Below are positions 11,329 through 63,343 of a stretch of DNA of 64,000 bases, piece after piece; positions within the stretch are counted from its first letter, which is position 1; every line of letters begins with the position of its first letter. Below the pieces are notes generated by a model. It worked only from the letters and a program-made list of their open reading frames with translations, was not told the origin of the DNA and did no database searches. A program made the translations under genes and the position numbers. This stretch comes from Octopus vulgaris (lineage: Eukaryota): contig OX597817.1 of NCBI GenBank assembly GCA_951406725.2, forward strand, positions 149,234,001-149,298,000. Direction: 5' to 3'.

Positions 11329-12822
11329 CAAATGAATAAACAGTTCACATAAGCAAAATTCAAACGCTTGTACCATTAGTCGAGCTTGTGGTATTGTCAT
11401 TTCTAAGAATTGGACCGAACCAACGCTAAACCAACAGATTGGAACATTTCAGAAAAATCTGTCACTGCTTAATCTTCTATCTAGTTCCACTAATGAAGAA
11501 ACTGGTCACCAGAAGACAAGCAGCAGACTGTATCACAGTAACTATGGCAGTAACCGTTCGCTATATAATGGCTACCGCCATCTTCTAAGTGCCGCTGGCG
11601 CCTTATTACCAATAATAATGTTTTCCTTCTGACTTAATCGCTTTCTGTCAACTAAGGTCCAACAAGTTCACTGAGACAGTTCTGCTTTCAGTTCTATGAT
11701 ATTCAAATGAGATGCAAATAAATGCAATGACTTAGTGCATGTAATCGACGTGTAATCTGATAAAATGCAAATATTTCCGCCGGTTGTTTCGGCTGCATTC
11801 ATCTGTTTGTGATATTACTATAGTTTGAGCTAGAAAACGTTTGATGGTGGTTCGATGGATCTCATGGCGTTCAGATGCCGTTGAAGAAGTAAAAATAAAA
11901 AGAAATTAAGAAGAGAAAGACGAAGAAGAAGAAAAAAAGACAAAATGCCGTGATGGTTATTTGCTTATTTCAAATCAGTAGAATATCATTCCTGTCTTTC
12001 CACCTGATAATTACTTTTTGTATCTTTTAGTATGGAGAGTAACCAAAACTCCATTATACAAAATAGACCATAACCACCATCAACACACCACAACTGCCGT
12101 TACACTATGGCCATCGCCACAGCTCCCACTTATACACCACCAACACCATTACTGCTATCATTAACCACCACCACCACCACCATCACCGATACTGATTTCT
12201 CCTCTGGTATTATAATGGCAATGCTTCTAACATATCAGTTTCCGTTCGAAACATGTAGCTTCCGTTGTTCGACTCTAGTAAATAAACACTGCGGGAAAAA
12301 ATAGCCTCGTGTTCAAATAGAAGTAAAGTGTTCGACATTGAAATGTTGTAAATCAAATATTCAACATTTTGTGAACATAGCATACGATAGTGTAACATCG
12401 TGTTTTCAGCAACATGTTGAAAATGCCTCTGCATTTGACGAGACAATTAAATGACCGTGCATGGCTTGGATTCGTTGCATACACTGGCAGTTGGAGCAGA
12501 TTTTAGTTTCCTTTATTGACGATGGATTTTGGAGTTATTTTTGCCTGAAAAATTACCAATTCTATACACACATACACAAGTGCACACATTTATATACACA
12601 TGCACATTTACACACACACACACACATACACACACACACACATGCATATACACGTATAAACGCTCTGGCTCAAACAGACACACATAGAGAAATAGATTGA
12701 AACGATGAATAAAGAGGTATATATATATGTGTGTGTGTGTGTGTGCGTGTGTATGTGTGTGTCTGTATCTGTGTCTATGAGTGTGTGTGTGTGTATAAAT
12801 ATATACATTAAAGTATAACGGA

Positions 12823-12963
12823 GAATGGAATAGTTATATCTGGAATAATCGCAATAAAAGATATATTAGTATATAGAATTGTAATACTATATTAATGATT
12901 AAATAACAATGTATACTAATATATGTTTTATTGTTAATATTCTAGATATAACCATTCCATTCT
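12823..12963. repeat. AT-rich foldback with ~52-bp imperfect arms
   Basis: agaatggaatagttatatctggaat..tatattagtata vs tatactaatata..attctagatataaccattccattct. Confidence 0.7.
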
Positions 12964-13106
12964 TTCTTATACTATATAATTGCTCTCTCGGCCCTGTTAA
13001 ATCCTTAAACATCTTGTTTAACATTCTGGACAATACCCCAAGTCCAGCACTTTACTAGTGACAGCCAATTCTTTTTTCTCCTAAAAAGACACATTTTATT
13101 AATTAC

Positions 13107-13150: not shown

Positions 13151-13387
13151 CTAGTATTATAACCCGATTTCATGCGAGTCAACTCTGATCACATTTTACA
13201 GATGAGGAAATTTGCCCTCGGGGCCATACCTTTCAATTGAACGAACTCAAAGTTGCCATACAAACTCCCCAGTACTTTTAACATAGGTATGCAAATTTCC
13301 AGGTCAATCCGATCACATTTACTAACACTTTTGCCAGCACAACTGCTTGTGAGACAATGTCCGCCATTTTCACAAATATATAGTAGA
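13151..13387 (-). mobile_element. Short non-autonomous Helitron
   Basis: Minus strand: A|TCtactatatat...actcgcatgaaatcgggt imperfect hairpin...CTAG|T; no TSD. Confidence 0.65.
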
Positions 13388-13430: not shown

Positions 13431-14673
13431 ATGGGTGCTGAAACGGCTGCTGACTGGGTGCTGAAACGGCTGCTCAACCACTCAAATGTGGAAGTGATAT
13501 ATCTCCACTTTGCAAAGGCCTTTGATAAAGTCGATCAGGGAATGATATGTCACAAACTGCGTGATCTCAACATAGTTGGAAAACTGGGAGAATGGCTTCA
13601 TGACTTTCTGAAAGATAGAAGTCAGGTGGTAGTAGCCAATGGGGCCACTTCCATTAACACGCAAATAGTGAGCGGTGTTCCGCAGGGCACTGTTCTGGGA
13701 CCACTACTGTTCATAATGGCCCTCTCAGACATGCCCTCAGCCACGCAGAGAGCCACGATCACAAGTTATGCAGATGATACAAAAGTTTCACAGGCAATAC
13801 AGAACCCCGAGGACACTAAACACCTGCAATGTGAGCTGGACAAAATATACAAGTGGGCCGAAAAGAATAGCATGCAGTTCAATGCTGAAAAGTTTCAAGC
13901 TCTATACTATCAGCATGCAAAACTAAATGCAATACCCAATGAATACACTGGACCCGGAGGAATAGTAATCCCAGAGGCACAATCAGTGCGTGACCTAGGT
14001 ATTTACATGAGTGATGACGCGACCTTTCGTGTACATGTTGCTAAATTGGCAATGAAACGACTGGCCGGATGGATCTTCAGAACCTTTAGAACAAGAGAAC
14101 AAGAAACCATGATGGTCCTCTGGAGGACACTTGTCCTAAGCCACTTTGACTACTGCTCTCAGTTATGGTCACCATCCAGTGTCAAGTTGATCACAGAGCT
14201 CGAGGCGATCCAATGTAGCTACACGAAGAAGATAGCCTCTATGCAGAATGTAAGCTACTGGGAAAGACTCAAGAGATTAAAAACTATATTCCCTGGAGCG
14301 TAGGCGGGAAAGATATGCCATAATATACATCTGGAAGATCCTGGAGGGACGTGTCCTGAACTTTGGCATCGAGAGTTACGCAAATGCCAGAACTGGGCGC
14401 CACTGCGTGGTGCCTAGGACTCCAAACTTGCCATCAAGATGTAGGACAAGATTCTGTGATAGCCTGGGCTTCCGAGGCCCACAGCTCTTCAATATCCTCC
14501 CGAAGAACCTGAGAGACCTGCATGGAGTGGATGCAGATGTCTTTAAAATGAAGCTGGATCTCTTCCTGTCAGGTGTCCCAGATGAACCAACTTCACGGCA
14601 GGAGGGGCAGATGAGGGCAGCTGCATCGAACTCTCTCATGCACCAAATGGCAGTTGCTAGAAAGCTTTCGTGA
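13431..14673 (+). pseudogene. Reverse transcriptase pseudo-ORF of CR1-group LINE
   Basis: YLHFAKAFDKVD, SGVPQGTVLGPLLF, YADD, VRDLGI, SYWERLKRL; frameshift near 14280; C-terminal FKMKLDLFLSGVPDEP. Confidence 0.9.
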
Positions 14674-14742
14674 AGTGAAACCAAGTAGCAACACCAAATG
14701 ACGGTGCCCCAGCATGGCCACAGCTCATAAGCTGAAACTAGA
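13433..14742 (+). mobile_element. 5'-truncated CR1-group LINE (RT to 3'UTR)
   Basis: RT motifs in ORF 13431-14303, frameshifted C-terminus 14407-14673, 3' tail cggtgccccagcatggccacagctcataagctgaaac. Confidence 0.92.
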
Positions 14743-14860: not shown

Positions 14861-15399
<539 letters not shown>

Positions 15400-15409
15400 T
15401 TTGTTGAAT

Positions 15410-15611
15410 ATGTTGAATATTTGATTTACAACATTTCAATGTCGAACACTTTACTTCTATTTGAACACGAGGCTATTTTTTCCAGCAGTGTTTATTTACT
15501 AGAGTCGAACAACGGAAGCTACATGCCTCGAACGGAAACTGATATGTTAGAAGCATTGCCATTATAATACCAGAGGAGAAATCAGAATCGATGATGGTGG
15601 TGGTGGTTAAT
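15410..15611 (-). repeat. Inverted duplicate of local sequence 12160-12367
   Basis: Reverse-complement match over ~200 bp with few substitutions and a shortened (CCA)n. Confidence 0.92.
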
Positions 15612-15725
15612 TTATATCTAATTTATATCTAATGTAGAATAATTTTTTTTCGAAAAAAAATTTTATCCTACATTAGATATAAATTTAATAGTGTTCATTT
15701 CCGGACTCTCCCACTCTGTGAGTGC

Positions 15726-16553
15726 AGGGTTTGTAGAGGCCGGTTGCGATAATACGTTAGGGGAGACCCTAGGTTTCGACGATAATCAGCTGGCCAGACT
15801 GTTCCAACGTACATTTGGGCCGAGGACCCTGGATAATTTTCAGAAGTCCTTGGCATGGCAGTGTTACCGAGGAGCCTTACCTGTTCGGGATAAACTCTCA
15901 AGGCACGGAGGCCAAGACAGCCCGACCTGTCCGAGGTGTGGGCGAGACAGGGAAACCGTCTCGCACGCGATCTTGCAGTGTTCGGAGGTGTCGGACATGT
16001 GGGTTTTTGCCGAACAACTGTTGTCAAGTGGAGGAGGAGTACAGCTATCGACTGAATCCATTGTAAAAATCGCCCCGCCGGATTTCTTAACGAAAGAAGG
16101 TAAGAATTGTTTTCTCTCTGGTTTCAACTGCGAAACAGGTAGTATGGAAGACAAGGATGAAAGGGGTAACAACAGGCAACTTCATCTCTGGTCCTAGTGG
16201 TATATTTTAGATTACACCTAAAAAGACAAATAGAGCTAGAGAGGAGGTGCCTGAGTAAGAAAGTGTTTGATGAAAGATGGAAGAATGTCGTGAAAAAAAG
16301 GACCCTCATGAATGCGAGATAAGCCTAAAAGAAAAAAGGAAAAAAAAACAAGGTCAGTGTCGTGGCGGGGCTCGTGAGGTCCGTAATCCCACTCCACTCC
16401 ATCTGTGAAATTGTCCTGTACAGTGTCTTATCATCCGTAAACTGTAACCATGTATAAATTTTTAACAGACCCCATACGCATGTTTAATGTTAAATCACTC
16501 GTGATTGTACCGTTTTTTTCTATGTATAACCTTTATGGTGAATAAAGAAAAAA
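15726..16553 (+). mobile_element. L1/Tx1-clade LINE 3' fragment inserted in the right arm of the foldback
   Basis: zf-RVT-like WQCYRGALPVRDKL..CPRCGRDRETVSHAILQC; ends AATAAA + A-run; host arm resumes at cacgtg 16559. Confidence 0.85.
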
Positions 16554-16685
16554 TCTCCCACGTGTCTTGAATGGGCTGGAGTATTTCTATTTTGGATTTA
16601 TTTGGGGTACTTAGTTGTGCTCATGACTTAATGTTTGCTTCTTCCATGGGTATGAGTAAGTATCTCATTTACTTCTTTGCCACAT

Positions 16686-16741
16686 GTATCACTGACGAAG
16701 GGAGGGTTCTTTTTGAACTAACCCTGAAATCGGTCCGATAT
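16686..16741 (+). ncRNA. Minimal type I hammerhead ribozyme motif
   Basis: gtatca CTGACGA agggagggttc ttttt gaactaaccct GAAA tcgg TC cgatat; stem II aggg/ccct plus ggttc/gaact. Confidence 0.7.
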
Positions 16742-16973
16742 GGTAATAATGGAATTTTTTAGAGAGTTCTGTCGACCTTTTTTCGAGTAGCGTGCGTACT
16801 GGGAAAAACATTATATGGTAAATGGAGAATATGTCCAATTTTTCGGCATATTTAGCATTAGAAAATTTTTTCGTTTGCCCTTATTTATAAGTTGTTTATG
16901 ATTTAACCTTTAAAGGTATTATTTAATATGATGGTCATTGATAAAAAATTTTTTCGAAAAAATTTTATCCTAC

Positions 16974-17032
<59 letters not shown>

Positions 17033-17034
<2 letters not shown>

Positions 17035-17372
17035 TTTTGGGATTTGGTTTGCAAGATTCTTTATATGAGTTCGTGTGTTGAAGCATATTCTGTTGTGTCT
17101 GGGGACAGTCATTTTCTTTTTGTGCCCTATAATTTAACACACTCACCGGTAAAATCTCCACTTATTCCTTATTTTTATTTTCCTAAAATTTCGTTGCGTC
17201 TTGCAACCTTTTCAATAGTCTTGACTCTGAACAGACAGAGTCAAGACTATTGAAAAGTTTGCAAGACGCAACGAAAATTTTAGGAAAATAAAAATAAGGA
17301 ATAAGTGGAAATTTTACCGGTGTGTTAAATTATAAGACACAAAAAGGAAATTACTCTCCCCACACACAACAG
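17033..17372. mobile_element. Foldback element family B in (TA)n with HHR-like variant core
   Basis: Arms 17090-17229 and 17236-17372, 6-nt loop; TTGAAAAg-gttgc aagac gcaac-GAAA; related element at 21600-21752. Confidence 0.72.
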
Positions 17373-17400
<28 letters not shown>

Positions 17401-17404
<4 letters not shown>

Positions 17405-17629
17405 GGTCCCGGGTTGATTCGGGGTTAACCACAGTAAGTAAGGTACTCAATACATAGCAGAGTAAAATTAATTTATTATATAGAAGGAGCTTCTACAGGA
17501 CTAGTACTGTTTCATTCAAGAGAAATCTTCAGGAAGCTCTTCCTGAAGATTCTCTTGAATGAAACAGTACTTCCTGAAGATTTCTCTTGAATGAAACAGT
17601 ACTAGTCCTGTAGAAGCTCCTTCTATATA

Positions 17630-17635
<6 letters not shown>
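17401..17635. mobile_element. Double-hammerhead foldback family C, copy 1, in (TA)n
   Basis: HHR on minus (17488-17538) and plus (17570-17616), plus a partial core duplication; same left end as 54040 copy. Confidence 0.85.
17488..17538 (-). ncRNA. Type I hammerhead ribozyme
   Basis: agcttc CTGAAGA tttctcttgaat GAAA cag tactagtc ctg TA gaagct: 6-bp stem I, acag/ctgt stem III, GUA triplet. Confidence 0.75.
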
Positions 17636-17680
<45 letters not shown>

Positions 17681-17684
<4 letters not shown>

Positions 17685-18317
17685 GAATTATATACATAAC
17701 TATAACAAGGGATTTGCTATACATTCTCCACGCGCTGGAAAAATAGACGCCAAAAGACATGATTACCACCTTAAAATCTCCGAGAATAACACACTGGGTT
17801 GTAGGCGAGCAAAAGAAAGATAATGACTTCAACTTTTGGTAAACCGTGTACAAGATCCTGTTTCAAACTTAAAGTAAGAAAAAAATTCTTATTGCTCTCA
17901 TCAGCAACGATATTCCATAGTATAAATTTACGAGTATCCACACATACGCATACGTGCAGCGTCATCGAACAGTCAATATATGTACGCTCTCGTAGAAATA
18001 TACAGTAAAGTAGAATTCAAATCTCTCTTTTACAACCACGTGTAATGACTCACGACATACTCTCCAGTTAATGTAGTTTTGGAATATTGTTGCTGATGGG
18101 AGCAGTAAGTAATTTTTTTCCCTTTAAGCTTGAAACAGGGTCTTGTACACAGTTAACCAAAAGTTCAATTCATTATCTTTCTTTTGCTCACCTACAACCC
18201 AGTGTGCTATTCTCGGACACTTTAAGGTGGTAACAGCGTCTTTTGGCGTCTAATTTACCAGCGCGTGGAGAGGCTTATAACCAATCCCTCGTTATAACTA
18301 CGTATATAATTATTAAA
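17681..18317. mobile_element. Older inverted pair, HHR element family D
   Basis: Arms 17681-17917 and 18081-18317 visibly diverged; minus core cgttg CTGATGA gagc..gttt GAAA caggatcttg TA cacgg (17844-17909); plus copy has CTGATGG (18088-18152). Confidence 0.72.
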
Positions 18318-19415: not shown

Positions 19416-20673
19416 TTGGGTCATCGCATAAATAATGCCCCTTTTTTATACTCCTTGTATTTTTACAAAATTAAATTAAACAAAGTTCTGTTTTAAATAT
19501 ATATATATATCGTCTCCTACGTTTTCTACAATGCCCTTCCATCCATCTGGTAGACTTACAAGGACCCTCTTACAAAATTCACTTGTCTGTGACAAAAAAT
19601 ACTCCTCCAGTAATGTTCTGACCTCGTCTACAGAATTCATATTTTTCCGTCCAAAGGATTTTGAAGACTGCGGAATAAATTATAATCAGATGGGGCATCG
19701 TTTCCCATTCAAACTGCTCCAGCCTTTGGAATGACATCCTCGCTGTATGTGGCCGAGCATTATCCTGTTGGAAGAACACCTTTCATCTTGAAACCAAAGT
19801 TGGTCATATTACTTCTTGCGCTGTCTTAAGCCGCTCAAGCTGCTTGTAGCAGATCTCCTTTGTTATCGTTTGGTTTGGGTTTAAAAGTTGAAAGTGGACT
19901 AAACCTTTCATACCCCACCAAACAGATAGCAACACCTTACGTGGGTGAAAAACCTTTTTTAGCCTGGGGTACTGGTGTTTCTCCTTTCCCTACCGACTGT
20001 CTTCGTCGCTTGGCATTTTTATAGAGAACCCATTTCTCGTCACCAGTCACTGTTCGGTCCAAAAAGAGTTCATTCGTGAGACGTGGCAGGAAAGAAGAGT
20101 ACACGTTCACACTCTACGCGCTATTAGACTGGGAAAGATTGTGAGGACCTCATTGATCCAATTTGATGACTTTTCCTAAGGCACGCAAATGTCGATGAAT
20201 GGTTGAATGACCAAATCCAAGCTTCTTCGCAAGTTCATCAACAGTTATGATGGGATTTTGTTCCACCAGGGTTTGCAGGACGTCCTCATCGAGCTCTATA
20301 CATCTTCCAGAAGCCTCGTCTTCTAGGCTGTAGTTGCCGGCACGGAATTTCTGGAACCACCGTTGATACTGTCTTACGTTTGTTATATCCCCATATACTA
20401 CATTAATATTTCTCGCACTTACCGTTGCATTGTTACTTTTATTGTTGATCTCATAAAGCAAAATATACCGAATATGCTCCTTTGTCACTTCCATTGAAGA
20501 AAATAACTGTTAAAATCGAACTACACTCTTCAGAACTTGCACAAAGAATAAGAACAAGGTGAAATTACTACCTGCTTTTATAATAAGTTGATGCAGGTAG
20601 TTTATCCTGTCACCCCCTCCGACTTTTTGTTCATGAAATTGAAAATAACCGCATTAATTATGGGATGACCCAA
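19416..20673 (-). mobile_element. Full-length decayed mariner DNA transposon
   Basis: TIRs ttgggtcatcgcataaataatgc / gcattaattatgggatgacccaa, TA duplication both sides; transposase motifs QRWFQKFRAGNYSLEDE, TGDEKWVLY, QQDNARPHTA with stops and frameshifts. Confidence 0.93.
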
Positions 20674-20855: not shown

Positions 20856-20927
20856 CAATTTTACATTTGAGGTGTTGACAGAATGGAATTTAAACTCCAT
20901 TTTGTCAACATCTCAAATGTAAAATTG
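20856..20927 (+). other. 72-nt near-perfect hairpin
   Basis: caattttacatttgaggtgttgacagaatgga / tccattttgtcaacatctcaaatgtaaaattg, 32 bp with two G-U pairs. Confidence 0.85.
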
Positions 20928-21597: not shown

Positions 21598-21752
21598 GTT
21601 TATATATTTCTTTTGCAAGATTCTTGATGCGAAATCGTGTGTTGAAACATATATTGTTGTATTTAGGAATGGTCATTTCGCCAGTTTAGCCAATTTTGTG
21701 CGTGTGTTTTTATTGGCTAAACTGGCAAAATGACCATTCCTAAATACAACAA
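21598..21752. mobile_element. Short foldback related to family B, with 12-bp flanking duplication
   Basis: Arms 21654-21694 / 21712-21752; ctaaagtactac at 21586-21597 and 21753-21764; shares tttgcaagattct..cgtgtgttgaa.catat with 17048-17090. Confidence 0.7.
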
Positions 21753-25529: not shown

Positions 25530-26025
25530 GCTAGTGTGAACGGAAAGGTTGAAACAATTAAGACTCTACACTCTGGAGAGAAGACGGGAGAGGTATGCAG
25601 TAATATATATTTGGAAGATCCTGCAAGGAATTGTGCCAATTCTTGGTATTGAAAGTACACCAATGCCAGAACGAGACGACACTGTATAGTGCCAAAGGTC
25701 CCAGCAATGCCATCACGCTTCAGGACCAGTATTTGCAACAACCTGGGTTTCAAGGTCCCACAGCTTTTTAATATTCTCCCAAAGAGTCTGAAGAACTTGC
25801 TCAAAGTAGATGTAGGGGTTTATAAATCAAAGCTGGACCTCTTCCTGTCGAGAGTCCCAGATGAACCTACCTCACGGCAAGAGGTGCAAATGAGGGTAGC
25901 TATATCAAACTCCATGCTTCATCAAGTGCCATATATTAGCGGAGGCTCTCAGTAATAACAATGTAGCAAAACGGCGAAAACGGCGGTGCATCAGCATGGC
26001 CACAGCTCTGAGCTGAAACTAGAGA
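25530..26025 (+). mobile_element. CR1-group LINE 3' fragment
   Basis: LGFKVPQLFNILPKSLKNL..KSKLDLFLSRVPDEPTSRQE; same 3' tail as 14700-14742. Confidence 0.88.
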
Positions 26026-39845: not shown

Positions 39846-41395
39846 AACGTTGGGATCCATGGAAATCGGGTAATAGGTTCTATGAGTTTGAGTTATACGA
39901 CTCAATACAAAATGTCCAATGGTTAGTGTAGATATATGTAGAAGAGACAGAGAAAGGTGGGTGAATAAATAGATACATAGAGAGATCCCATCACTCTTTA
40001 CTGGTTAAAACTTCTTTTTAATCCCCACCGTGGACAATATGATGTCTGATTTTCACAAACATATGATGGTCACAGGCCATATAGAAGCCACGCGAAGCTG
40101 GAAGACTTGTGATCACCGTTCTGCTCGATCAGGGCTGGCTTGAGAATAAGCTACGGAAACGTAACAACCACAAAGACAGAGAGAGTGTAACAAGGACAAC
40201 AGCATTAGTTACAATAATCATTATGAAAGGGTGTATGAAAATATCAGTAGAATTGTACTTTACTGAGTCTTATTTGTTTTATCAAAAGCTGAAGAATATA
40301 AAATAAAATTCACACAGTGTAGTATTTAAACTTCTGTACCAATGAGTACATTAATTCTCGCATGCTCTATTTTGATTGGACATCTTCTCAATAGGTTTCA
40401 AAAACGTATGTTCTCGCAGAATCGATTTTAAGATGAAAGCCAAAAGCAAATAAGTATAAATAAATTTTGCGTAGAGAGTAGCATTAACTTTAAGTTCCTT
40501 TTTATCCCCTTTCTTCTATACGCTATTTATGTGTTTATTTGTTTTTCTTTAATTAGAAAAAAATAAAGAAATAGCTTTATTTTTGGTGAAAAAATATTTT
40601 ACAATATGCTATTAGAACAATGAAGCAGAAACTATGTGTTAAGTATGAACGAGAAGTTAGAAGTAAAAGAAAAAACGTATTGAGGTTAACTGCAATAAAA
40701 TGCATCATGTTGAATACGGAGAGTAAAGTCTATGAAACGTACTAAGGGCAGGAAGAATAACACAAGTGTAATAAAATGCTATGTATATAAGAAAGAGGAG
40801 GAAAAAAATGAACGTAAACAAAAGACAACAATAACAACGATGACAACAAAGGCACTAACAAGATACTAATGCAATAAACTGTATGAAGTACTGGGGCGAA
40901 AATGACTTGCAATAAACTACAACGGAAAACTAGGACGGCAACGCGTGGCAATAAACTTCACAACAGGAAAACAACAGAAACAATACGTACATACATACAT
41001 ACATACATACATACATACATACATACATACACAGAGCAGTGTTGATATTTAAAACAATATAATGTTTAAAACGAAGTATAACAAAGACAATACATGGTAA
41101 CTGGTCGCCCCGGACGACCATAACGGTTTCGTCACTCATAATGTTGAGGGAGTTTTTTCATCCACAGTCTTAATAAACGATTGTTTGCTCTTTAATGCGA
41201 GCATTAAATACAGATGACTAGTACTGGCTCTATTGGTAAAGTGCTAGCCATCTACCACCAAAGCGATCAACAGTTCGTATTTCGCTGCTTCATAATGTAT
41301 AATATTCTGTAACAGTTCGCTTATTTTACCAAACATCGGGGACGCATTTTCTTTGTCTAAAATAAATTTACTACGAGTCGGTTGTTCTCATAGCA

Positions 41396-43304: not shown

Positions 43305-44084
43305 TGTATGTATGTATGTATGTATGTATGTATGTATGTATGTATGTATGTATGTATGTACAACGCCCTTAGTACTCTGTAAAGGTGTTTCAAAGAAAAA
43401 TGTTGACGAGCGACTCTGCCTTTCATTCCGTGTGACAAAGGCCGCTGACAACTTCACTTCACCGACCACTTTATTTAGCCATTGGCTCATAGTACACAAA
43501 ACCAATTTGTAAACACTCAGCATGGTATACTAACCTTGATGTATTTACTGTATCTGTTTGGAGGAGAAACTAATTTTCAACTCCGTCTCACGACGATTAT
43601 TCGTACCTAAGACATCTTTTAATTCCCATTTTAATTCTCTTCAATGGGTACTTTACAATAGATTTCTTGCACTTTTCTCCGAATAATGAGCTCAAGTTGG
43701 AAAAATTTGTATGTGTGTGTTGTTTTGGGACGGGTGGCTGATGTGAAATATAAGCAACCTTGTACACAAACTTATAGGGGATAAAAAGGAACTCAAAGTT
43801 AATGGTTAAGAAGTATAAATGTATGTGTGTGTACACATATACACACACAACGTCTAGGAAATTGAAATTATATTATCATAGCTATCGTACCTATTATTAT
43901 ATTATTATATTATCGTATATATCGTAGCTGACGATACTTATACAATGTACCGCATAGTAAGATTGAACTCGAACCCATGCGCTTGCAACCGAGGTTCTTA
44001 ACCACACAACCAAGTATGCATGCGTATATATGTAAGTATGCATGTATATATAAAGAATACTGCATTACGTACTGCCAGAGGAAC

Positions 44085-49085: not shown

Positions 49086-49575
<490 letters not shown>

Positions 49576-54039: not shown

Positions 54040-54232
54040 TGTAGGTCCCGGGTTGAGTCGGGGTTAACCACAGTAAATAAGGTACTCAATACATAGCAGA
54101 GTAAATTAATTTATTTTATAGAAGGAGTTCTACAGGACTAGAACTGTTTCATTCAAAAGAAATCATCAGGAAGCTTCCTGATGATTTCTTTTGAATGAAA
54201 CAGTTCTAGTCCTGTAGAAGCTCCTTCTATAA

Positions 54233-54237
<5 letters not shown>
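54040..54237. mobile_element. Double-hammerhead foldback family C, copy 2, in (TA)n
   Basis: Palindrome centred on ggaagcttcc (54169-54178); starts tgtaggtcccgggttga like 17401. Confidence 0.88.
54172..54222 (+). ncRNA. Type I hammerhead ribozyme
   Basis: agcttc CTGATGA tttcttttgaat GAAA cag ttctagtc ctg TA gaagct; canonical core, mirrored on minus at 54126-54175. Confidence 0.8.
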
Positions 54238-57694: not shown

Positions 57695-58052
57695 TGTTTC
57701 AGCCCGAAAGCTGCGGCCATGCTGGGGCACCACCGTTGAATGAGCTACACTAGTATGTGAAATCAGCTCTGATACGTGGCACTTGGTCAACAAGGGTGTT
57801 CTACGCCGCTGTCCGCATCTGTGTTTCCTGCCGAGAGGTAGCTTCATCTGGAACCCCTGGCAAGAAGAGATCCAGTTTAGTTTTAAAGAAAGCCACATCT
57901 ACACCATGCAGGTCTCTCATGCATTTAGGAACGATATTGAAGAGCAGTGGTCCCCTGAAACCCAAGCTGTTGCAGTATCTGGTCCTGTATTTTGATGGTG
58001 ATATTCGGATATTTGGCACTATGCAGTGGCGCCCCGTTCTGCTTTTACTCAT
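57695..58052 (-). mobile_element. CR1-group LINE 3' fragment
   Basis: RTGRHCIVP..CNSLGFRGPLLFNIVPKCMRDLHGVDV..KLDLFLPGVPDE; tail cagcatggccgcagctttcgggctgaaac. Confidence 0.9.
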
Positions 58053-61738: not shown

Positions 61739-63012
61739 TCGTTATATTTGTCTGCGAATGCCTCTTCCTTTGACAGTGTCTCTGTCTATTGAACTATCTA
61801 TATATGGCTACCTACTTAATAACGTATGTATATCGTTAAAATTGATAATACTGTGTTGCTTATTCATTTAAATCTACGCCATTGAATTCAGCTAATTTTA
61901 TAAAAGATGTCTGAGATTTGTTGGTGTTACAGATGTTGTGAGATTAGCGACTTGCCGAGACAATGATCTACCAAACTACCGTCTGACGTGTTATAATATC
62001 CTTGCTAGCGATACTATATTTTTTTCTCTCTCCTAACTCAAAACACTTAATTCTCATCTCACTAATCCAATATACCTTTTGTAAAATAATTATCCTGAGT
62101 AGGCACAGTCAAATACTCATTAAATTTTCTCATTAATTATTAGATAACGAGTATGTCGCTATTTAATAATTCAGAGACACCCTGTGCATCAAAAAAACAG
62201 TATTGATGTTTTTAACGTTGGGTGCATTAGACGTCTAACGAAATAAAAATGCCGATTAATATGCGGTCCTGGTCTTGAATATATTAAACGCTATCGTTCT
62301 GAGTACTTTGTCACCTTGCAATGTTGGGTTTAACTTGCAAAACAATGGGAAGCCCTTATATAGCGCTCAGCATACCACCAACATTTTCCATTATATCTAT
62401 CGAGTCTTCTCTCGGATACTGACTCTGGTTCCGGAAATGGTTGGTGTCCAGCGAAAGTCACCCTTACCGAGCGAAAGAAGAAGCCTCTATGTGGTCTTTA
62501 GATATAGTAGCTAAATCTGCCTTAATAACACCCTAACATCTTAAATAGTTCTGATTTTGGAAGAAGGTCGGCAATTTTGAAGGAGAGAGTGAGGTCACTT
62601 AGATTCCTAGTACTTTGCTGGTACTTTATTTTATCGACCACTGAAAGGAAACAGGTGACTTTTGTGATATTCGAACGCACAACGTAAATATCCAGAAGAA
62701 ATGAAGCTAAACATTTTATCCGATGCTCTAACGATTCTACCAGTTTACTGAACAAATAGGATAATATAGTCATACATATCATAAAAACTGAATGGTCACG
62801 GATGGAAAGCTTTTGCTTATATGTCTCCTTCACCAAGGCTGACATGAAGCTAAAGAGCAGCAAGGTCATTAAGTCTCAAGGCTTCCTCGTTGACGTCATT
62901 CTTTACTGAACCAAGCTTCAGAGATTTCTGAACAATTATTCAGCAATAAATATTCTTTTCTACTCTAGGCAGAAGGCCAAAAATTGTGTCTTGGGTGAAT
63001 AAGTATACAAAT

Positions 63013-63243
63013 TATAATAACACACGCACGTTCGGTTCCATTTCTTTATTATAAATCAATTGGTTAAATACCTAACGAACTAATTAATCGATGGTTTGTT
63101 TAACGTGTTGGTTAAATAGTCAAACGGTTTCTGTACCGTCTCTATTTAAACCTTACAACTGATTAATTAATTGATTGAATATCTAACCAATTGACTAATA
63201 ATTAAGAAGTAGAATTGAACCAGTGCGTGTATTATTGTTATTA
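63013..63243. mobile_element. Old foldback/MITE-like palindrome
   Basis: acacgcac..tcaattggtta..taattaatc vs gattaatta..taaccaattga..gtgcgtgt; centre ttaaatag..acgg..accgt..ctatttaa. Confidence 0.65.
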
Positions 63244-63343
63244 TTGGCTAATGACTCTCCCAAGAGAATAAAATTTGTTTCAACTCACGAATTCACATCA
63301 AGAATGTTACAAAATATATACAAAAAGCAAATCAGATGTACGT

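Follow-up and report, generated by a model that had tools for sequence, protein, structure and literature searches.

A foldback element in the window (the whole 64,000-nt stretch of Octopus vulgaris DNA analysed here) holds at its centre an inverted copy of host DNA that still lies intact about 3 kb upstream. The feature is real and well resolved. As a preliminary description of this DNA had claimed, the segment 15410-15611 is the reverse complement of 12160-12367; a global alignment of the two is identical at 197 of 202 bases, with five substitutions and one 6-nt gap, which falls in a (GGT)n run that is shorter in the copy. Compared with the rest of the window, the copy matches the donor at BLAST E 6e-95. 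The donor starts within a degenerate (CAC/CAT)n tract, which extends leftwards beyond the shared stretch and does so only at the donor; because of this continuation and the intactness of the donor, we regard 12160-12367 as the source. The features of the locus, and two further foldbacks used for comparison, are as follows.

12160-12367, plus strand: donor stretch, 208 nt, intact (alignment and BLAST)
14960-14995, no strand: (TA)n target tract on the left, following CA/TA runs
14996-15399, minus strand: left (short) arm, in which element sense is minus-strand and the last bases are the dyad core TTCGAA
15124-15182, minus strand: type I hammerhead-like motif of the left arm (motif scan)
15400-15410, plus strand: left junction, 2 nt and a 9-nt stutter of the donor end
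15410-15611, minus strand: captured inverted copy of 12160-12367, 202 nt, 5 substitutions, GGT run shorter by 6 nt
15612-15654, plus strand: 11-nt stutter and 35-nt copy of the inner end of the arm
15649-15725, plus strand: inner part of the right (long) arm, from the fold point TTCGAA onwards
15726-16558, plus strand: LINE 3' fragment (zf-RVT), 833 nt, replacing 14 nt of the right arm
16559-16896, plus strand: right arm, outer part, with 23 nt absent from the left arm
16687-16745, plus strand: type I hammerhead-like motif of the right arm (motif scan)
16897-16977, plus strand: tail, 81 nt beyond the end of the left arm, holding a native 22-nt palindrome (16945-16966)
16978-17031, no strand: (TA)n target tract, right flank (flank reading)
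17404-17623, no strand: foldback B1, with a short extra arm copy (17539-17569) at its centre and no host capture
54043-54236, no strand: foldback B2, of the same family and with the same fold point as B1, with a clean, unspaced centre

The captured copy and its junctions

The window is AT-rich (GC 28-45%), and about 12,500 of its bases are simple repeats; microsatellites swamp unmasked searches, and repeats were therefore sought by masked self-BLAST. The donor had been called unique-looking, and within the window this holds: a relaxed BLAST search with 11950-12570 gave no third copy of 12160-12367, the next match being 34 bp long (E 0.03). None of the six frames of the donor matches Pfam at the curated cut-off. 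The Pfam search covered 15 read-through frames (six of the donor, three of the left arm, six of a nearby foldback, E); hits to DUF5844 (E 0.09) and MMADHC (E 0.005) were below the cut-off and were taken as chance.

Donor and copy are separated by 3,042 nt, and both the Helitron-like piece and the LINE that the new inverted pair of about 200 bp had been said to span lie in this gap. The former (13151-13387, minus strand, TC...CTAG ends) is short, and we take it to be Helitron-like from the general features of Helitrons. The latter is a frameshifted RT/LINE fragment (13431-14741; Pfam RVT_1, E 9e-17) with related pieces at 25560-26022, 49193-49552 and 57696-58041; among the best 120 of 2,649 matches, its best named protein match is from Argonauta hians, at 59% identity. 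An older AT-rich foldback with 78% arm identity (12809-12976) is also found between donor and element. Elsewhere in the window there is a mariner-type transposase fragment (20150-20509; HTH_48, E 4e-15), near a 72-bp palindrome (20856-20927), and an inverted pair of 29 bp (40482-40510 and 43776-43804) whose members are 96.6% identical and separated by 3.3 kb; these may be terminal repeats or a further case of small-scale local inverted copying.

From left to right, the centre of the element runs from the left arm and its TTCGAA (15394-15399) through 2 nt and the 9-nt stutter into the inverted host copy, and then through the 11-nt stutter and the 35-nt copy of the inner arm end to a second TTCGAA (15649-15654) and the right arm. 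The arm end at 15399 and the fold at about 15650 had been placed correctly before. Central arm sequence is intact, with both arms reaching the dyad. On a top-strand reading, the four switch points carry microhomologies of 4 (imperfect parse) and then 2 nt at the left junction, and of 3 nt at each of the two switches within 15612-15654; read on the bottom strand, the junctions parse about as well. The stutters reported earlier at both junctions are there. In 51,478 unmasked bases we count 11 perfect tandem duplications of 8-12 nt, and the two stutters are among them; the rough chance of such a duplication is 0.002 at one given junction and 6e-6 at both.

The extra arm copy (15620-15654) repeats 15365-15399 at 91% and can form a hairpin with the right arm. 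It had been described as about 40 bp of re-synthesised left arm. A copy of 35 nt is indeed present, but its A8 run is shared with the right arm, whereas the left arm has A6, and so the left arm was not necessarily its template; the match is in a homopolymer, where slippage or assembly error could have produced it. The broader proposal of several template switches onto local DNA is supported by the four microhomology switch points, the stutters and the single donor in the window. Microhomology priming and iterative re-priming (2-4 nt, four switch points, two stutters) are both present, and the insert works like a templated insertion of polymerase theta, yet it is outside that class by tract length and distance, being 202 nt long and taken from 3 kb away rather than under about 25-30 nt and from the immediate flank.

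The foldback as a likely Penelope-like element

The preliminary description had located the foldback without recognising a Penelope-like identity, which comes from the hammerhead motifs, the palindromic join, the tail and the (TA)n flanks. Descriptions of Penelope-like elements include a neighbouring copy in inverted orientation, a tail on one side only and insertion into microsatellites (PMC8557442). Here we find the features of a pLTR remnant, namely a type I hammerhead motif, a head-to-head copy with a junction palindrome and a microsatellite target. One arm is also extended by a tail, but this is 81 nt long, against 30-40 nt in the Penelope families described in the same source. There is (TA)n on both sides of the element, and a target duplication cannot be read inside such a tract. 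The telomerase-like RT and GIY-YIG endonuclease ORF of an autonomous Penelope-like element was not found: the three sense frames of the left arm have no Pfam match, and stops interrupt all six frames of both arms. Since no ORF was found, the foldback is likely a non-autonomous derivative of this class.

The hammerhead-like motifs, one per arm, each point outwards. They are the only two matches of the motif scan in the window, and none was found in each of 20 shuffles. Rfam detected no hammerhead in 11-19 kb, only sub-threshold hairpin matches, and the single Rfam match obtained in a further search at 160 nt, again not a hammerhead, was taken as chance. Folded as single strands, the four hammerhead regions had z-scores of -0.3 to -1.5, and in none was the hammerhead the minimum-energy fold. 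For the motif of the present element, the hammerhead fold has -12.0 kcal/mol and the minimum-energy fold -16.9 kcal/mol. Stem II is closed by A-U here, in place of the usual G-C. Metazoan Penelope hammerheads are reported to have a weak helix III and to act as dimers (PMC4209133).

The tail re-enters the arm's own start, which defines a unit of 485 nt, and it follows from this re-entry that the fold point is the native 22-nt palindrome. The non-coding long arm (15649-16977) is made up of one full unit, with one hammerhead, and 25 nt more, and it runs through the predicted cleavage site; such a layout would fit a multimeric or circular RNA template. It is short of the at least two tandem units with complete hammerheads that mark an active non-LTR retrozyme. 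The earlier picture of the centre is also refined by the 833-nt LINE fragment (15726-16558) that interrupts the right arm. No target duplication is seen at this fragment; it may have inserted independently of an endonuclease, or have been acquired through a template jump as the cDNA was made.

We compared nine local foldbacks, setting the centre bounds of three (C3, F and G) by eye; one of the nine holds flank DNA. Of the eight centre spacers searched against the window (B2 has none), one matched non-element DNA. There is no second copy of the present element, family A, in the window (best match 25 bp, E 0.006). B1 and B2 have a common short dyad fold point and common outer ends. The extra arm copy of B1, 31 nt long and beside the long arm, repeats the design of family A minus the host DNA, and B2 has an unspaced perfect palindrome of 92 bp. 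B1 and B2 differ by four substitutions in the shared part of the arms, and because all four are mirrored on both arms of each copy, the foldback was probably made anew at each insertion, as far as the mirrored variants can tell; gene conversion between arms could also produce them.

The three foldbacks of family C (17033-17371, 21599-21752 and 62989-63326) have diverged by about 22-25%, and a shared stretch of about 70 nt spans their tail. Their short arms end near one register (read by eye). A relaxed hammerhead pattern matches A, B1, B2 and E and none of C1-C3, F and G, so that family C is Penelope-like by architecture only. Four foldbacks (A, C1, B1 and E), three of them with hammerhead cores, stand in a row at 14996-18315 with only (TA)n tracts between them, which looks like repeated use of one target. 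Nothing in the window matches the 162-nt centre spacer of E (17918-18079), which may belong to the element and lack a pairing partner, or may have been captured from another place.

Timing and mechanism of the capture

The arms differ at 9 of 389 sites, and donor and copy at 5 of 202 (Fisher p=1.0). The ratio of the two divergences is 1.07, with a 95% interval wide enough (0.28-3.6) to make this a weak test of age. The Bayes factor for simultaneous over uniformly later capture is 2.2, or 1.7 if an adjacent double substitution is counted once, and the likelihood falls from 0.22 at ratio 1 to 0.09 at 0.5 and 0.013 at 0.25. The divergences are thus weakly compatible with capture at the time of insertion, although conversion between the arms could mask the true age. 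The proposal that the switches took place during integration fits the equal divergences, and is favoured only about 2:1 over a later event.

Our preferred reading, to which we would give about an even chance, is that fold-back synthesis, primed by microhomology, produced the 202-nt insert as the two halves of the new insertion were joined. Both strands of the (TA)n tract would have served as primers for cDNA growing inwards. Synthesis would have begun at two fixed sites, separated by about 80 nt, which would have made the left arm short and the right arm long, both reading antisense. Ends of the same sense would pair only at the palindrome, and elements would normally join there because two such ends can pair nowhere else. 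At this locus the first attempt at a join would have failed. The right end would have turned back at the palindrome and used itself as template for about 35 nt, with one slip, while the left end may have folded back onto its own exposed flank, made an abortive start of 9 nt, re-primed and copied about 200 nt. Annealing of the two new 3' ends at 3 bases, and fill-in, would have completed the join. Both extra pieces, the 35-nt one matching the right arm and the 202-nt one the left flank, are inverted relative to templates on the same side, as intramolecular fold-back of each 3' end would give; this placement is limited to two pieces out of two.

Several of these steps have counterparts in the literature. 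Purified Penelope protein is reported to cleave and extend both target strands and to start at two template sites, which define the tail (PMC11167929), and palindromes at inverted junctions have been interpreted as self-priming (PMC3846280). Fold-back inverted insertions are described at breaks in yeast, mostly of about 5-34 bp (PMC11724301). Polymerase theta makes iterative templated insertions (PMC12426944), typically under 25-30 nt (PMC12426944, PMC11724301). The slips in the present insert look like those of theta; since typical theta tracts are so short, a run of 200 nt suggests the RT of the element or a host polymerase of higher processivity. In favour of synthesis at the time of insertion, no arm sequence was lost at the centre, the extra copy has the A8 run of the right arm, and B1 has a similar extra arm copy beside its long arm; against it, up to 3 kb of exposed flank is required, a need that would be smaller if the Helitron-like piece and the LINE arrived later. 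The capture abolishes the perfect palindrome and creates a second inverted pair, and the product is likely an inert scar.

The main alternative order of events, which we consider possible though rather unlikely, begins with a perfect palindrome with arms of about 400 bp that broke at its centre after insertion, at a cruciform or a stalled fork, with repair that copied 200 nt from nearby; the 35-nt extra copy would then come from off-centre opening of a hairpin, or from a fork returning 35 nt early. Unspaced inverted repeats are prone to breakage, and the literature has a name, centre-break revision, for such a process (PMC3300023). At this locus a 35-nt direct repeat flanks the insert, the right arm has also gained the LINE fragment, losing 14 nt without a target duplication, and the total length of the A+T run in the extra copy is 10, as in the left arm. 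However, centre breaks usually delete sequence, and a central deletion is absent; B2 retains its unspaced perfect 92-bp palindrome, albeit with shorter arms; and the capture is no younger than the arms, although an early break would give equal ages as well. The 35-nt repeat might also be read as the target duplication of a retroposed insert, a candidate not favoured, as there is no poly(A) and there are stutters at both ends. The general idea that a Penelope RT re-primes in the manner of telomerase and jumps onto neighbouring DNA or RNA while it closes the head-to-head junction seems to us improbable, and slightly more so its specific form of a single pass on the bottom strand, in which a fold-back at the palindrome is followed by a telomerase-like slip, a jump onto 12160-12367 (as a putative local minus-strand transcript or unwound DNA), a second slip and the join. 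On the bottom strand one 3' end primes twice at ATT, and a run of 200 nt suits an RT. Penelope RTs are relatives of telomerase, and it has been proposed that these RTs self-prime and then jump between templates (PMC3846280). Against such a jump, there is no poly(A) or splice signature, and standard 5' resection would be expected to expose the opposite strand of the donor. The ATT at the donor edge coincides with a reported Penelope cut motif, and was set aside as a likely chance occurrence in AT-rich DNA.

Two explanations would remove the copying altogether, and both are very unlikely. The 200-nt segment could be a dispersed repeat that inserted independently at both places: even if its family had thousands of members, 64 kb need not contain another. 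Yet there is neither a third copy in the window nor a Pfam match at the cut-off, the two copies are 97.5% identical within 3 kb, and the degenerate microsatellite within which the shared stretch ends runs on at the donor alone. An error of assembly, or a chimeric read, is a shade less probable still. Inverted Penelope structures are reported to trouble assemblies (PMC8557442), but here the arms differ by nine substitutions, a 23-nt indel and the 833-nt LINE fragment, donor and copy differ by five substitutions and a microsatellite change, and the stutters are ordered at the junctions.

Significance and relation to known systems

The locus is a retroelement insertion or a palindrome repair scar with locally templated DNA; the processes are known ones, and each ingredient has a precedent. 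What is special is that the donor and the slips made in copying are legible at single-base resolution, and their preservation leads to sharp predictions about the orientation, side, distance and relative age of captured pieces. Taken alone, the locus is one likely inert scar. If the jump of the element's RT were the true reading, foldback centres would be a dated, base-level record of host-DNA capture by Penelope, and would keep supplying octopods with new local inverted repeats. Octopods are known for heavy editing of double-stranded RNA, and transcription of the new 200-bp inverted pair, if it occurs, could yield double-stranded RNA. Unusually many double-stranded RNA structures have been reported in octopus (PMC5625713). 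The formation of inverted Penelope junctions is described as an open question (PMC8557442), and capture of host DNA by these elements is explained in PMC3846280 by hypothesis only.

The closest resemblance is to inverted Penelope insertions (PMC8557442, PMC3846280, PMC4209133, PMC11167929), with which the element shares an inverted 5'-adjacent copy, a junction palindrome, a tail on one arm, a (TA)n target and two type I hammerhead motifs on opposite strands. The distance between opposite-strand hammerheads is 100-700 bp in PMC4209133, and about 680 bp here when the LINE fragment is set aside. Unlike the Penelope elements described in these sources, this one has no detected RT/GIY-YIG ORF, and its junction holds host DNA. 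Our search, by titles and the opening lines of abstracts in mostly open literature, found no published cis-templated insert at an inverted Penelope junction. Penelope elements of Adineta vaga carry captured host spacers and move unrelated sequences between pLTRs (PMC3846280), and the spacers of Pen1_Av and the intervals between solo pLTRs resemble our case in that unrelated host sequence lies inside element repeats. Those spacers, as described there, are 0.9-1.5 kb long, precede the 3' pLTR or lie between direct pLTRs, and have no local donor named, whereas here 202 nt stand at an inverted junction, with the donor 3 kb away in cis.

Expression of L1 gave three insertions with DNA templated near the site (PMC11702581). 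The likeness extends to the extra sequence from near the site and to microhomology joins between inverted cDNAs, with the difference that those data come from human cells in culture and that the stretches of one RNA copied in L1 twin priming mostly do not overlap, while the present palindrome duplicates about 400 nt. With theta, fold-back and MMBIR-type insertions (PMC12426944, PMC11724301) the insert shares minimal microhomology, re-priming, patchwork and inverted copies; it differs from typical theta insertions, reported there as short and taken from immediate flanks, in that one of its tracts is 202 nt long and has its template 3 kb away. Finally, non-LTR retrozymes have been proposed to be Penelope derivatives (bioRxiv 10.64898/2026.07.22.740005). 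Like those described in that source, the present element is built on a non-coding tandem unit with a type I hammerhead; unlike them, it is arranged as a foldback, with one 485-nt unit and 25 nt in place of two consecutive hammerhead units.
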